A stretch of DNA of 28,328 bases from Ignisphaera sp. (GTDB lineage: Archaea > Thermoproteota > Thermoprotei_A > Sulfolobales > Ignisphaeraceae): the NCBI GenBank assembly GCA_038889075.1, contig JAWAHS010000018.1:1-28328 (forward strand), written 5' to 3'. Below, in pieces: positions 4,622 to 27,614 of this stretch (the stretch's first letter is position 1; the number at the start of each line of letters is the position of its first letter). A model generated the notes under the pieces. It did no database searches, was not told the DNA's origin, and saw only the letters and a list, made by a program, of their open reading frames with translations. The translations under genes and the position numbers were made by a program.

Positions 4622-5767
4622 TTATTCTACAATGTAGCTAGAGATATGTTTTTCGAATTCCCTGGTTACAATTTCGACGAAAATTCTCTTAGCTACAATA
4701 GATCCTACACCTAGGATATAGGGCAAGACGATTTGCGTAGAAAGGTTTAACAATGGAGCTTTGTAGATGTCTATGGGTTTTCCCATCTCGTTAACTATAG
4801 CTCTACCCATTTTGATACCATGTACGTAACCCTTATAGACAGCCCATATCAATTCCTTAAATGGATAAGGTTGTTTTCTAGCGACTTTAGATAAACTTGA
4901 GATAGATAAACCTAGAATTGCTCTACCAAGAATTGTGTATACAAAATGTTGTTTTCGTATAAAGTACTTGAATCTACTATTACACACCTCATTTGTGGCA
5001 TAAAATCCCCTGGTAGTATAGTAAAGTTTCATGGGGGAAACCCTGCCAAAAGTAGAAGATCTTCTATGATATGCTACAGGAATAGGACAGCTCATAACTT
5101 TGAATCCAGCATTCCAAAGCTGCAACCCTAATATACAATCATCGAAGTAAGCAAACATCTTATCATAGAATAATCTGTCTCTAAATCCTGTGATTCTCTT
5201 TACAGCGTTTACCTTAAGAAGAGCATAAGCTCCATCAGCATATGTTACATAAAAAATCCTATTTCTAACATCGCCAACGTCTCTACCTTGATAAAGCTGT
5301 CCACCGATAAGCAATTCTGTAAGAATGCCACCTGCGGTATCCACTTTTTTGGTGTCAAGGTCTAGTATTACCCCCTGTGCAGCCCCTACACCATCTATTT
5401 GCTCTGCACATTCAACTAGGGCGTTAATACTATTTTTAAATGGTATTGCATCATTATTCAACAACATAACGTATTTAGATTCTGGATCTCGAGCTCTAAA
5501 ACCAACATTACAACCTCCTGTGAATCCTAGGTTTCTATCTAATCTAATAACCTTCTTCTTAAGTCCTGTTCTTTCTTCGAGAAAGTTACTTATGGTTTCA
5601 AAACTTCCATCACTAGAGCCGTTATCTACAACTATAAGCTCATATCTATTGTTAGGATAATCAAGATCTGCTACTCCCTCAAGAGATTCTAAAACAATAT
5701 CTATTATCTTATTTGAGTTATAGTTAAGCCAAATAATAGAAACTTTAGGTAGCATTATGCCAGTCAC
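4622..5767 (-). CDS. Glycosyltransferase family 2 (true start probably ATG 5755)
   Basis: VSIIWLNYN, VVDNGSSDGS, NLGFTGGCN, LLNNDA, FAYFDD motifs. The GTG at 5767 lies inside the GGTGA RBS. Confidence 0.9.
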   Translation of the reverse strand: MTGIMLPKVSIIWLNYNSNKIIDIVLESLEGVADLDYPNNRYELIVVDNGSSDGSFETISNFLEERTGLKKKVIRLDRNLGFTGGCNVGFRARDPESKYVMLLNNDAIPFKNSINALVECAEQIDGVGAAQGVILDLDTKKVDTAGGILTELLIGGQLYQGRDVGDVRNRIFYVTYADGAYALLKVNAVKRITGFRDRLFYDKMFAYFDDCILGLQLWNAGFKVMSCPIPVAYHRRSSTFGRVSPMKLYYTTRGFYATNEVCNSRFKYFIRKQHFVYTILGRAILGLSISSLSKVARKQPYPFKELIWAVYKGYVHGIKMGRAIVNEMGKPIDIYKAPLLNLSTQIVLPYILGVGSIVAKRIFVEIVTREFEKHISSYIVE

Positions 5768-23766: not shown

Positions 23767-23798
23767 CTGCTTAATAGGTAGATCTATGGTGGTCAGTA

Positions 23799-24860
23799 GT
23801 GGTTTCTAGTATAGGGAAAAGAAGGCTACTACTGGTATCGCTAGCCATTATCGTTATTGCTATCATTGCGGTAGCTTCATATCTCTTCATCATACCTTAC
23901 CTACTAAGGCCCGCACCTGTAAGGGGTTCTATAGTGGTGTATGCAGCTATCCATGAGTTTGAGGTGGATAGATTGTTAAGGATGTTTACTGAGGAGACCG
24001 GTATAGAGGCTAAGTATGTTAGGATGAGTGCTGGTGAGATAGAGGCTAAGTTGAAGGCTGAAGCTGCTACTGGTCAAATTCAGGCTGACGTGGTTTTAGG
24101 GGGACCTATGATAAACCATGAAAGTATGAAGAAGGCTGGGCTTCTATATAAGTGGGATCAGCCCCCACCTAATGCTAGAGATATTCCTTCACAGTATCAT
24201 GATCCTGATAATTACTGGTTTGGATTCTATGTAGGTGCTATTGCATTCTGTATCAATTCGGATAGACTATCGAAACTCGGGCTACCCGAGCCAGGTGGTT
24301 GGGAGGACCTCACAAAACCTGAATATAAGGGGCAGTATGCTATAGCTGACCCTAGAACATCTGGAACAGCATACACTGTTCTAGCAACTCTTCTATCACT
24401 GTATCCAGAGGATAGAGCATGGAGTATAGCCTCCACCATCTGGAAGAATGCTGGTGCTGTTCCAAAGGCTGGAGCGGCTCCTGCTCAAATGTGTGCAACT
24501 GGTGAGTATCCAATAGGTATAGCATTTGCCCATGACATCCTAAAGCTTCTAATGGCTGGATACAAGGTGAAGATAGTATATCCTGCTGAGGGTACAGGCT
24601 GGGAGATAGGTGGGGTAGCCGTGGTGAAGGGTGCTCCAAATCTTGAGGCAGCTAAAGTATTTGTAAACTGGGTACTAGGAAGAAAGGCAGGCCAGCTCCA
24701 CACCGACCTCTCTATGAGGCTTTCAACAAGAGGTGATGTAGTACCACCACCTGGTACAGTACCTCTTTCACAGATAAATATTGTTAGAGATTTTAAATGG
24801 AGGTGGGCAGCTGAGAACAGAGATGCGATACTAAAGACATGGGAGTCTGCGGTGGGCTAA
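23799..24860 (+). CDS. ABC transporter substrate-binding protein, AfuA/FbpA-like, N-terminal membrane anchor
   Basis: KRR + hydrophobic anchor, FTEETGI, QADV, WEDL, DPRTSGTAY, FAHD, GWEIGG motifs. Confidence 0.9.
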   Translation: MVSSIGKRRLLLVSLAIIVIAIIAVASYLFIIPYLLRPAPVRGSIVVYAAIHEFEVDRLLRMFTEETGIEAKYVRMSAGEIEAKLKAEAATGQIQADVVLGGPMINHESMKKAGLLYKWDQPPPNARDIPSQYHDPDNYWFGFYVGAIAFCINSDRLSKLGLPEPGGWEDLTKPEYKGQYAIADPRTSGTAYTVLATLLSLYPEDRAWSIASTIWKNAGAVPKAGAAPAQMCATGEYPIGIAFAHDILKLLMAGYKVKIVYPAEGTGWEIGGVAVVKGAPNLEAAKVFVNWVLGRKAGQLHTDLSMRLSTRGDVVPPPGTVPLSQINIVRDFKWRWAAENRDAILKTWESAVG

Positions 24861-24861
24861 G

Positions 24862-26532
24862 ATAGGTAGAGGTATCCTGGGAAATCCAATTAGGGATGAT
24901 CCATACTCTAAAACTGCAACGATTTTTTTACTTCTTCTAATCTCGTTTTCCTTTCTAGTAATATTTATTCTCTATCCAATAGCTGTCGGGGCATACTACT
25001 CGCTAACTGCTGGTGGTATTGGTTACTACGGTAAATTCCTTGCAGAGGCACTCTATCGCGAAGCTCTACTCAATACCTTTCTTATAACAGTAGTATCTAC
25101 TCCTCTCACAGTTGCTGTAGGGCTATTCTATGCAGTTTGTCTAGAGGCTATACCGCCAAGGTTTAAGAAAATCTTTACCTATCCACTTGTACTTCAGCTA
25201 ATATCACCTCCATTCGTCTCCGGACTTGCCTTCATTATGCTCTTTGGAAGGAACGGTGTAATAAGTAGGTTTCTTGAGGATAGATTTGGTGTAACTCTAG
25301 ATCTATACGGATTGCCGGGACTGGTCATAGTCCAGGTTCTAACCTTCTTTCCCAGCGCCTTTCTCATAATCTATGGTGCGCTTAAGAATATGGATAGATC
25401 TCTAGAATATGCTGCTCAGGTTCTAGGAGCCTCATCCATAAGAACGTTCTTTGATATCAAGTTGAAGCTACTTAAACCAGCAATACTTTCAGCAACACTT
25501 CTCATTGCCATGGAGGTGTTTGCGGATTTTGGAAACCCTCTCCTTATAGGGGGGCGTTTTATAGTGCTTGCTACACTTGCATATACACTTGTTGTTGGAT
25601 GGGGTGACCTTATTGGAGCTCTTACCGTTGCATATGTTCTCTTGATACCTTCCCTTGCTCTCTTCTTTATGCAGTGGAAGCTGATTGGTAGGGGTAGATA
25701 TGTTACAATCAGTAGGGAGGCCGTATTCATACCAACAAGATACTCTATAAGGAATAGAATCCTATCATATCTATTTCTATCTCTTTTCTCTGGCATAATC
25801 TATGCATTCTATGCTCTAATATTTACCGGCGGCTTTATCAAGACCATAGGTGTGGACTACTCATTTACCTTAAGGCATATTGAGGAGGTTAGCCTTGCAG
25901 CTAGAATAACCCTAACAAACTCTCTACTACTCTCAATATCATCATCTCTACTCATAGTGGCTATAAGCTTTATCACGGCCTACCTTGCCGCTACACGGAG
26001 GATTTTTGTTAATAAGGCTTTAGAGGTACTATCAACAATACCTACAGCCATTCCAGGTACCACATTTGGACTATCATACCTCCTGGCATTCGGTAGAGCT
26101 CCATTAAGGCTATATGGTACTCCGAACATCATCATGTTTAACAATGCTGCTAGGTTCATACCCTTAGGATTTCAGGCTATAAAGTCACAGCTACTCCAGA
26201 TAGATCCAGCTATAGAGGAATCCTCTATTGTTTTAGGTGCCGGTGTTGCTAGAACGATGTTCAGAATATACCTACCGCTAAGCATAATAAGCTTTGGTGC
26301 ATCGCTTGGCTATGGTTTTATAAACTCTATGAAGACCGTAAGCTCTGTCATATTCCTACAGACGCCGGATTGGAGGCTTGCAGCACCATTTATTCTAGGT
26401 CTTGGACACCATGGCTACTGGGGTCAGGCGTGTGCATTGAGCACAATTCTTATACTTATCATCATAGCATTCTTCATGTCACTTAAACTATTGTTTAGAG
26501 GAAGAGTTAAACTCTTTGGTGATCTGATATAG
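24862..26532 (+). CDS. ABC transporter permease with two fused TM domains (AfuB/FbpB-like); proposed ATA start
   Basis: Frame is open from 24835 and encodes TM helices and SPPFV before the first ATG (25237); two EAA loops (LEYAAQVLGAS, IEESSIVLGAG); 556 aa from ATA 24862. Confidence 0.85.
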   Translation: MGRGILGNPIRDDPYSKTATIFLLLLISFSFLVIFILYPIAVGAYYSLTAGGIGYYGKFLAEALYREALLNTFLITVVSTPLTVAVGLFYAVCLEAIPPRFKKIFTYPLVLQLISPPFVSGLAFIMLFGRNGVISRFLEDRFGVTLDLYGLPGLVIVQVLTFFPSAFLIIYGALKNMDRSLEYAAQVLGASSIRTFFDIKLKLLKPAILSATLLIAMEVFADFGNPLLIGGRFIVLATLAYTLVVGWGDLIGALTVAYVLLIPSLALFFMQWKLIGRGRYVTISREAVFIPTRYSIRNRILSYLFLSLFSGIIYAFYALIFTGGFIKTIGVDYSFTLRHIEEVSLAARITLTNSLLLSISSSLLIVAISFITAYLAATRRIFVNKALEVLSTIPTAIPGTTFGLSYLLAFGRAPLRLYGTPNIIMFNNAARFIPLGFQAIKSQLLQIDPAIEESSIVLGAGVARTMFRIYLPLSIISFGASLGYGFINSMKTVSSVIFLQTPDWRLAAPFILGLGHHGYWGQACALSTILILIIIAFFMSLKLLFRGRVKLFGDLI

Positions 26533-27614
26533 TCCAGTACATACTCTCAGTTATGAATGTAAGTAAGAGGTTCGGAAGTATAGTAGCTGTAGATAGAGCC
26601 TCGTTTGATGTTGAGAGGGGTGAGTACATCGTTATCCTAGGTCCTTCTGGCTGTGGAAAGACTACGCTCCTAAGAATTATTGCAGGGCTCTACGATCCGG
26701 ATGAGGGAAGTATAGTGATAGATGGAAGGGATGTCACACCACTTCCTCCACACAAGAGGGGGGTTTCCCTAATGTTTCAGAGCTATGCACTATTTCCACA
26801 TATGAACGTTATGGAGAACATAATGTATGGACTCAAAGTTAAGAAGGTTCCACTAAACGATGCTAGAAGAAAAGTTAAGGAGATAGCCTCATTATTGGGA
26901 ATAGACGACCTTCTTGATAGATATCCTCACCAGCTCTCAGGTGGGCAGCAACAGAGGGTTGCCTTAGCAAGGGCACTTGTAGTTGAGCCAAAGGTGCTCC
27001 TTCTAGATGAGCCTCTAAGTAATCTGGATGCAAAAATTAGAGCTAGGATAAGGCATGAGTTAAGAAACCTGCTGAGAGGCTTAAAGATAACAACAATCCA
27101 TGTTACACACGATCAGGAGGAGGCTATGGCCTTAGCTGATAGAATCATTGTTATGAATCTGGGTAGAGTTATGCAAATAGGTTCACCATATGAAGTATAT
27201 AGAAATCCGAGGACGCTATTTATAGCGGATTTTATAGGGTCAACAAACTTTGTTGAAGGTATTGTAGGGGTAGATGCATACAATAGAAAATCCGTAAGGC
27301 TAGGTTCTACGCATCTCATTTCTCAGAATATAGATGAATTCCAGATCGGCGATAAGGTAGTTATAGGTATTAGATATGAAAGTATAGAGTTATATAACGT
27401 CAAACCCAGTACACCCCATGATGATAATGTGTTTCTAGCTACTGTCAAGGATAGGATATTTATGGGAGCTATGACAAGGGTTATAGTAGATGTAGAAGGT
27501 ATTGAAATGGTAGCTGATATAGTCAGTAGCCAAGCTGAAAAGCTAAATCTATCTATACACAGCAATATATACATTAGAATACCTAAGGAGAGGATAATGG
27601 TGTTTAGAAAGTAG
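26529..27614 (+). CDS. ABC transporter ATP-binding protein (AfuC/FbpC/PotA-like) with TOBE domain; ATA 26529 or ATG 26553 start
   Basis: Walker A GPSGCGKT, LSGGQQQR, LLLDEP, VTHD motifs. Confidence 0.93.
   Translation: MVQYILSVMNVSKRFGSIVAVDRASFDVERGEYIVILGPSGCGKTTLLRIIAGLYDPDEGSIVIDGRDVTPLPPHKRGVSLMFQSYALFPHMNVMENIMYGLKVKKVPLNDARRKVKEIASLLGIDDLLDRYPHQLSGGQQQRVALARALVVEPKVLLLDEPLSNLDAKIRARIRHELRNLLRGLKITTIHVTHDQEEAMALADRIIVMNLGRVMQIGSPYEVYRNPRTLFIADFIGSTNFVEGIVGVDAYNRKSVRLGSTHLISQNIDEFQIGDKVVIGIRYESIELYNVKPSTPHDDNVFLATVKDRIFMGAMTRVIVDVEGIEMVADIVSSQAEKLNLSIHSNIYIRIPKERIMVFRK

Follow-up and report, generated by a model that had tools for sequence, protein, structure and literature searches.

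How does translation of the second and third genes of an archaeal transport operon begin when the second has no ATG, GTG, or TTG codon at its start? The question was raised by a 28,328-nt stretch from Ignisphaera sp. (hereinafter referred to as the window), which is the whole of a 28.3-kb contig (C18) from a genome (G000) of 1.95 Mb in 25 contigs with 39.4% G+C. Three genes on the same (+) strand at 23799-27614 encode a substrate-binding protein (SBP), a permease, and the ATPase of an ATP-binding cassette (ABC) transporter. The two distal genes are probably translated from AUA, each located 6 nt behind a GGUGR Shine-Dalgarno (SD) sequence in the end of the preceding gene; we put the probability of this reading, which was derived from nucleotide sequence, at roughly 0.6.

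The permease frame is open from 24835 to a TAG at 26530-26532, corresponding to 565 codons, and is preceded by a TAA at 24832-24834. The first-pass annotation had described this frame as open from that stop without any of the three canonical codons before 25237, and our coordinates agreed. The ATG at 25237 lies 134 codons into the open frame, and a listing of open reading frames (ORFs) with canonical starts gives the permease only as 431 aa (25237..26532), 125 residues shorter than from the ATA at 24862. In a set of 1762 non-overlapping genomic ORFs with 100 codons or more, this 134-codon lead was the second longest; it was the longest for any ORF of more than 223 codons (genome median, 4 codons; 99th percentile, 62 codons).

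The arrangement claimed earlier for the junctions was also found in the sequence. GGTGG (24851-24855) is followed after 6 nt by the in-frame ATA 24862, one base past the SBP stop. At the next junction, GGTGA (26518-26522) is followed after 6 nt by ATA 26529, which overlaps the permease stop TAG as ATAG; the ATPase frame opens after TGA 26520-26522, itself inside GGTGA. The SBP gene has the same spacing in front of its own start (GGTGG-N6-GTG). The 16S rRNA of the genome is archaeal, with a 3' end reading ...GGAUCACCUCCU / GGATCACCTCCT. Over 1747 first canonical starts, the distance from GGTG to the start peaked at 7 nt (147 starts) and 8 nt (91 starts), which corresponds to GGTGN-N6 and GGTGN-N7, and the canonical starts at GGTGN-N6 comprised 47 ATG, 23 GTG, and 31 TTG. 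Both junctions show the geometry of real starts in this genome.

To verify the sequence, assembled contigs were used, including those of an RNA-library run (X18), which was likewise taken as contigs. Both junctions were identical in two JGI metagenome contigs (L061 and L062; 99.9% identity over 4.2-4.4 kb). No differences were present in contigs of run X15 (24600-24954 and 26157-26800) or in a contig of run X17 (26521-26750), and 2 differences were present in the RNA-library contig (24600-24912). A strain of 94.5% identity in run X19 had 90 differences over 24600-26226; none was listed at 24834-24866, and the upstream stop TAA had become TGA. A look at the raw reads of both junctions had been called for; the independent contigs used here show no ATG and no indel. 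The sequence of the locus is real and contains no assembly error. It is barely conceivable that an ATG has been obscured by misassembly (artefact) or that SBP and permease are joined by a +1 frameshift (recoding). The permease is indeed read in the +1 frame with respect to the SBP gene, with an overlap at 24835-24860, but the same letters occur in the two JGI contigs, the other runs, and the 94.5%-identical strain, with no indel listed. Further, the genes of orthologous operons are separate, each with a start of its own, and no fusion of about 900 aa was found among the best 120 matches, with lengths up to 973 aa searched. Run X19 also contained contigs of 83-87% identity over the 5' part of the ATPase gene (26444-26800), which may come from a relative or a paralogue.

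The differences of the X19 strain were examined in the permease lead over 24862-25119. Read in the permease frame, 13 of 17 were synonymous third-position changes (binomial P = 3.4e-4), similar to the SBP gene, where 14 of 16 were synonymous third-position changes. Because of this bias, the startless stretch is evidently under coding selection and translated. In addition, homologues of 50-81% identity spanned 98% of the permease counted from ATA, and the PF00528 domain began at residue 87, 39 residues ahead of the first canonical codon (residue 126). The permease cannot start at a canonical codon. Given the contig, substitution, and homology evidence, neither initiation at ATG 25237 nor a dead gene nor an assembly error explains the locus well. 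Decay of the operon, with start codons lost and the permease (perhaps also the ATPase) no longer made, is very improbable. A search of 16 further genomes from the genus did not find the operon, and two adjacent genes lack a good canonical start, both of which would fit decay. On the other hand, the frames are intact over 556 and 361 codons, most strain differences in the startless stretch are synonymous as given above, the same arrangement occurs with a full-length permease in an 81%-identical relative, and essential genes of this genome, e.g., thymidylate kinase, have a putative near-cognate start as well. The marks of a pseudogene were absent, in that both frames are open and the synonymous bias is kept.

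If AUA serves as a start at this locus, near-cognate codons (one base off AUG) should stand behind SD sequences elsewhere in the genome. A long-lead set was defined (68 ORFs), in which each ORF spans 150 codons or more and is open for at least 25 codons before its first canonical start. Within the first 15 codons of these, SD-bearing codons made up 19 of 173 near-cognate codons vs. 18 of 822 other codons (odds ratio [OR] 5.5, p = 1.5e-6); by codon, they comprised 10 of 16 CTG, 5 of 54 ATA, and 3 of 30 ATT. A spacing profile was then restricted to codons that open at least 150 codons, with a stop at most 10 codons upstream and with the 20 codons that follow free of canonical ones. The profile contained, at N6-7 behind GGTGN, CTG 8 times, ATA 5 times, ATT 3 times, and other codons 7 times, whereas the remaining 14 spacings together contained 5 near-cognate and 97 other codons (OR 44, Fisher p = 5.8e-11). 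ATA accounted for 5 cases at N6 (one of them the permease itself) vs. 4 over the other 15 spacings, so that the enrichment at this spacing, on which the earlier interpretation had been made to depend, was found. Without the filter against downstream canonical codons, ATA was counted 14 times at N6-7 and 16 times at N1-3, the latter excess arising because ATA often lies just upstream of real starts. Raw genome-wide codon counts after GGTGA, GGTGG, GAGGT, and AGGAG gave no clear signal, since coding periodicity dominates them. The profile applied to 80 loci of relatives (323 kb, containing few ORF starts) returned only orthologues of a HAD hydrolase that had been fetched on purpose. Near-cognate starts were within 20 nt of an upstream stop in 9 of 21 cases vs. 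98 of 309 for canonical SD-led starts; they were not limited to coupled junctions, and some were far from any upstream gene.

Protein domains pointed in the same direction. In 7 of 17 candidates with an SD and a near-cognate codon, a Pfam domain begins before the first canonical start (Table 1; an ABC ATPase with CTG is among the 7), while 8 were not decisive and 2 had no Pfam match. A P-loop or DxDGT motif lies within the lead in several of the Pfam-supported candidates, and in a second ABC ATPase of this genome (contig C9), Walker A precedes the first canonical start by 45 residues. The Pfam scan was extended to 40 of the 50 remaining long-lead ORFs, the 10 left out having leads of 25-26 codons, and 3 of the 40 require an upstream start. 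With the permease counted, an SD and a near-cognate codon were present in 10 of the 11 genes whose homology demands an upstream start.

Starts also differ between species at the same aligned codon. In the HAD hydrolase, this codon is ATA in the present genome and in congeners G012 and G014, ATT in G009, and ATG or TTG in G006, G007, G008, and G028; GGTGR lies 5-6 nt upstream in seven genomes of the genus, and an in-frame stop lies 1-2 codons upstream in the ATA/ATT species. A T2SSF-like gene has ATA with an ATAG overlap here and ATG in G009, with MAPKLQL encoded in both, and thymidylate kinase has CTG here and TTG in G012 and G009. Judged by these alignments, other genes of the genome have ATA or CTG in the start position. 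The best explanation of the combined data is that about 16-22 long genes (roughly 1%) would start at CUG, AUA, or AUU, essentially always behind a canonically spaced SD.

Which near-cognate codon starts the permease? The frame contains CTG 24847, ATA 24862, ATC 24874, CTG 24877, and ATT 24889; the predicted N-terminus is MGRGILGNPIR... from ATA 24862 and MRWAKIGRG... from CTG 24847. Based on the sequence context, ATA 24862 is the likely start, CTG 24847 is an unlikely one, and the smaller remainder falls to the other codons. The CTG, which the first-pass annotation had overlooked, would place the start 14 nt inside the SBP gene and make the ATA and its SD a by-product of the conserved SBP C-terminus. 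Several observations count in its favor and weigh against AUA. Four database models of 561 aa have Met where the window translation has Leu (residue 1), three of them with one more residue changed, and the 81%-identical relatives P0004 and P0005 were called from M at the same position. The SBP of an 84%-identical relative ends in WEQFAVG vs. WESAVG here, which implies TTG at the position of CTG 24847; the TTG inferred for the 81-84% relative aligns with that codon and not with ATA 24862. DNA of this relative was not found among 60 relatives, 16 congeners, or JGI metagenome contigs, and the JGI contigs matching the operon belonged to the window's own species only. Moreover, CTG is the commonest near-cognate start in the genome (8-10 cases), and the replacement of TTG by CTG also occurred at the start of thymidylate kinase. 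The permease SD itself is only GGUGG with one G-U pair (-7.4 kcal/mol), is made of conserved SBP codons, and may be present for that alone. Finally, the ATG of the nearest orthologues whose DNA was read (L031 and L032; 50-53% identity), which came from metagenome-assembled genomes labelled Candidatus Benthortus and Aeropyrum sp., aligns with ATC 24874, located 18 nt from the SD, and not with ATA.

In contrast, CTG 24847 has no GGTG at a working distance (a GGAG ends 1 nt before it), and 10 of the 11 genes discussed above do have an SD in front of the near-cognate codon. The TTG of the relative is possibly a chance by-product of the Phe codon in its SBP frame, and P0128, P0004, and P0005 all have Ile at residue 6, where the ATA stands; RWAK is constrained anyway by the overlapping SBP codons.

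For the ATPase, the case for AUA differs because a canonical codon is available. The SD GGTGATC had the strongest duplex energy among 11 sites tested, and its GGTGA core lies 6 nt before ATA 26529; duplex energy was poorly specific, about 14% of random internal codons reaching -7 kcal/mol, and was used to rank the sites of the locus only. The orthologue alignment that had been proposed as a check gave a mixed picture. For the permease, the starts of others aligned with ATC 24874 and CTG 24847 and not with ATA; for the ATPase, the GTG start of L032 aligns exactly with ATA 26529, the ATG of L031 lies one residue later, and both are preceded by GGTGA-N6. The predicted N-terminus is MVQYILSVMNVSK... 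from ATA 26529 and MNVSK... from ATG 26553, which lies 8 codons downstream of the ATA and 20 nt past the permease stop.

A start only at this annotated ATG (353 aa), with the upstream ATA and SD unused, is rather doubtful. The ATG is canonical and in frame. Of the 15 ATPase cluster members listed, 11 are models of 353 aa that start there and four are shorter, and a protein begun there would keep every ATP-binding motif as well as the A-loop Phe of KRFG. However, no SD precedes the ATG (-0.3 kcal/mol), whereas the strongest in the locus stands 6 nt before ATA, and at 20 nt past the stop the ATG lies where reinitiation is reported to be nearly lost in Haloferax volcanii and Escherichia coli (PMC10666635). 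Among the best 120 homologues, Walker A begins at residues 33-60 (mode 36) in 117 of the 119 that bear the motif. It is at residue 38 when counted from ATA 26529, a position shared by 13 homologues, but at residue 30 from ATG 26553, a position found in 2 of 119, one of which is the protein's own database model. In addition, alignments with nucleotide-binding domains of solved structure begin at query residues 4-8, before Met9. The ATPase of the 81%-identical relative was called only from an internal Met (291 aa, 2 contigs), which implies that the relative has no Met at the position of ATG 26553; judging from the length of this gene call, canonical codons seem to be missing from the first ~70 codons of its ATPase gene, a stretch that includes Walker A. 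The conserved N-terminus therefore argues weakly against a canonical start in the ATPase, where ATG 26553 exists but would shorten that N-terminus. Taken together, AUA initiation behind GGTGR-N6 is the best-supported reading of the two starts: the junction geometry, the genome-wide enrichment, and the orthology of the HAD and T2SSF-like genes support it, and CTG 24847 and ATG 26553 are the less probable alternatives. The earlier interpretation is partly supported and, for the two genes, probably right in large part.

The features of the operon and of the other genes are listed in Table 1. Pfam domains together with the names that some sources give to homologues served to assign the importer type. 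Homologues of the SBP carry PF13531, PF13416, PF13343, or PF01547; the source names of some are iron(III) or 2-aminoethylphosphonate SBP. By this homology, the locus is an intact SBP-permease-ATPase operon of an Fe3+/polyamine-type importer. The stretch was present in hot-spring metagenome runs from 11 studies, and its G+C content (39.8% for the contig) did not deviate from that of the genome. The failure to find the operon in the 16 congeners, which also weighs against our reading of the locus, and the distance of its nearest orthologues suggest horizontal acquisition. An Rfam search of the window returned no family.

Table 1. Positions and properties of the operon features and of further genes with putative near-cognate starts or requiring an upstream start (energies are those of the duplex with the 16S rRNA tail).
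Feature	Position	Strand	Remarks
SBP Shine-Dalgarno GGTGG	23788..23792	+	6 nt before GTG 23799; -11.4 kcal/mol
Substrate-binding protein gene	23799..24860	+	353 aa; N-terminal membrane anchor; GTG start, TAA stop 24858-24860
CTG, rival permease start	24847..24849	+	Met in 561-aa models; no SD at working distance; -3.0 kcal/mol
Permease Shine-Dalgarno GGTGG	24851..24855	+	in last SBP codons GCG GTG GGC; -7.4 kcal/mol
ATA, proposed permease start	24862..24864	+	6 nt after GGTGG; 1 nt after SBP stop
Permease gene	24862..26532	+	556 aa from ATA; Fe3+/polyamine-type BPD_transp_1 by homology and PF00528
ATPase Shine-Dalgarno GGTGATC	26518..26524	+	7 nt complementary to 16S tail; in last permease codons; -12.9 kcal/mol
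ATAG, proposed ATPase start over permease stop	26529..26532	+	ATA 26529-26531 over TAG 26530-26532; 4-nt overlap
ABC ATPase gene	26529..27614	+	361 aa from ATA; Pfam ABC_tran and TOBE_2
ATG, annotated ATPase start	26553..26555	+	353-aa models; no SD, -0.3 kcal/mol; rival or secondary start
HAD hydrolase			putative ATA start; Pfam domain upstream of first canonical codon
Obg-like GTPase			putative ATT start; Pfam domain upstream of first canonical codon
Mpt_N protein			putative ATT start; Pfam domain upstream by only 5 residues
Thymidylate kinase			putative CTG start; Pfam domain upstream of first canonical codon
Cytidylate-kinase-like protein			putative CTG start; Pfam domain upstream of first canonical codon
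S-Me-THD protein			putative CTG start; Pfam domain upstream of first canonical codon
Second ABC ATPase	contig C9 28485-29195 (L060:201-911)	-	GGTGA-N7-CTG four codons after upstream stop
Aldo/keto reductase			GGTGG-N6-ATT; Pfam needs upstream start
DUF1512 protein			GGTGG-N7-ATA; Pfam needs upstream start
Archaeosine tRNA-guanine transglycosylase	contig C12 33899-34008 (L120:1-110)	+	Pfam needs upstream start; unexplained

In the archaeosine tRNA-guanine transglycosylase (TGT) gene, the TGT domain runs from residue 12 of the open frame, but no ATG, GTG, or TTG occurs before codon 33; upstream of the domain, the sole near-cognate codon is an ATA at codon 5, located 19 nt from the nearest GGTG.

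A mechanism can be proposed. The 16S tail (GGAUCACCUCCU) would pair with the SD and place AUA in the P site, where a normal initiator tRNA (anticodon CAU) would read AUA with a third-position mismatch and insert Met. Initiation may occur de novo, or ribosomes that finish the upstream gene may reinitiate; the codon used in each gene, the insertion of Met, and an output below that of ATG are all predicted features of the scheme. A special initiator tRNA was considered and rejected as an explanation: the tRNA scan yielded 45 tRNAs with no initiator of unusual anticodon, and the initiator has a normal CAU anticodon, as far as the assembly shows. The initiator tRNA (contig C17, ~4984-5066, + strand) begins with AGCGGGG and has CAU and three G-C pairs in the anticodon stem. 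It was missed by ARAGORN and found by pattern search; after the T-loop it is unlike a tRNA, possibly with an intron at an unusual position, and only two other CAU tRNAs were found.

The stop-start geometry of coupling is present at both junctions, as TAA-g-ATA (+1 nt) and as ATAG (4-nt overlap). The first-pass annotation had further suggested that the weak codon holds the permease and the ATPase below the SBP through translational coupling. By analogy, this is a reasonable idea, since E. coli near-cognate codons give a small fraction of AUG output. The reported values are 1-2%, or 0.02-3%, of AUG (bioRxiv 10.1101/063800), and output this low also speaks against AUA as the start of the two genes. 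In H. volcanii, reinitiation is reported to lose 60% at an intergenic distance of 13 nt and to be abolished at 22 nt (PMC10666635). The ATAG of this locus resembles the ATGA type of coupling treated there, in that start and stop share two bases and an SD lies in the last 15 nt upstream. Unlike ATGA, the start here is ATA, and near-cognate starts of this genome also occur far from upstream genes. A 4-nt overlap with a TAG or TAA stop can only be NTA, and therefore no canonical start fits it.

Near-cognate initiation is already known as a kind, and this locus probably adds another instance. The start codons of NCBI translation table 11 include CTG, ATT, ATC, and ATA, and E. coli infC starts at AUU. 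To our knowledge, work on start-codon stringency in the group to which this archaeon belongs has been confined to in vitro studies of aIF1. A further point against AUA is the report that the aIF1 of Sulfolobus discriminates against starts at non-canonical codons (PMC6237735). In Deinococcus deserti, N-terminal peptides confirmed one gene starting at CTG and one starting at ATC (PMC4007540). Such bacterial cases share with the present one a codon one base off AUG behind an SD in a leadered or internal cistron. They use IF1-3, whereas the archaeal system would use aIF1, aIF1A, and aIF2; and in place of one peptide-confirmed gene per codon in D. deserti, about 1% of long genes are predicted here from sequence, with ATA and CTG dominating. 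Ribosome profiling of H. volcanii placed ~30% of putative alternative sites at near-cognate codons, which the authors set aside (PMC7261190). Both cases concern archaeal initiation at codons near-cognate to AUG, here predicted; the H. volcanii sites are alternative ones in a mostly SD-independent euryarchaeon, whereas those predicted here are tied to an SD and leave the conserved proteins no other possible start. In the main texts of the open literature, no account was found of SD-gated CUG, AUA, and AUU starts being used throughout a genome in Crenarchaeota. As for the transporter, the operon shares gene order and domains with FbpABC/PotABCD-like importers, including a double-length BPD_transp_1 permease of ~550 aa. 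It differs from them in that the names of its homologues vary (iron(III), polyamine, 2-aminoethylphosphonate) and that its best matches, at 50-53%, are in other archaeal lineages.

Database models of the permease reflect how its start was called. The eight sequences of its 90% cluster comprise four of 561 aa, two of 482 aa, one of 431 aa, and one partial. The 482-aa models have M for I at an internal ATA (25084), a codon without an SD, and the 431-aa form from ATG 25237 was found on 14 contigs in four sources. Three N-termini of the permease (CTG 24847, ATA 25084, and ATG 25237) are thus in circulation, none of which is ATA 24862. Gene callers limited to ATG, GTG, and TTG shorten the permease by 125 residues, and about twenty other genes would be similarly affected, among them kinases and ATPases in which the P-loop precedes any canonical codon.

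On balance, the sequence data favor a relaxed but SD-gated start rule in this lineage. About 1% of genes, thymidylate kinase included, would start at CUG, AUA, or AUU only when these stand 6-7 nt behind GGUG; starts would drift between ATG/TTG and ATA/ATT/CTG among congeners as an expression dial, and AUAG or AUAA would provide the 4-nt overlap for genes ending in TAG or TAA. The locus and its genome offer a testable set of SD-dependent CUG, AUA, and AUU starts in a crenarchaeon, and the natural ATG-ATA and TTG-CTG pairs among congeners allow direct comparison. The main value of the finding lies in annotation and in these natural test cases for archaeal start-codon selection.

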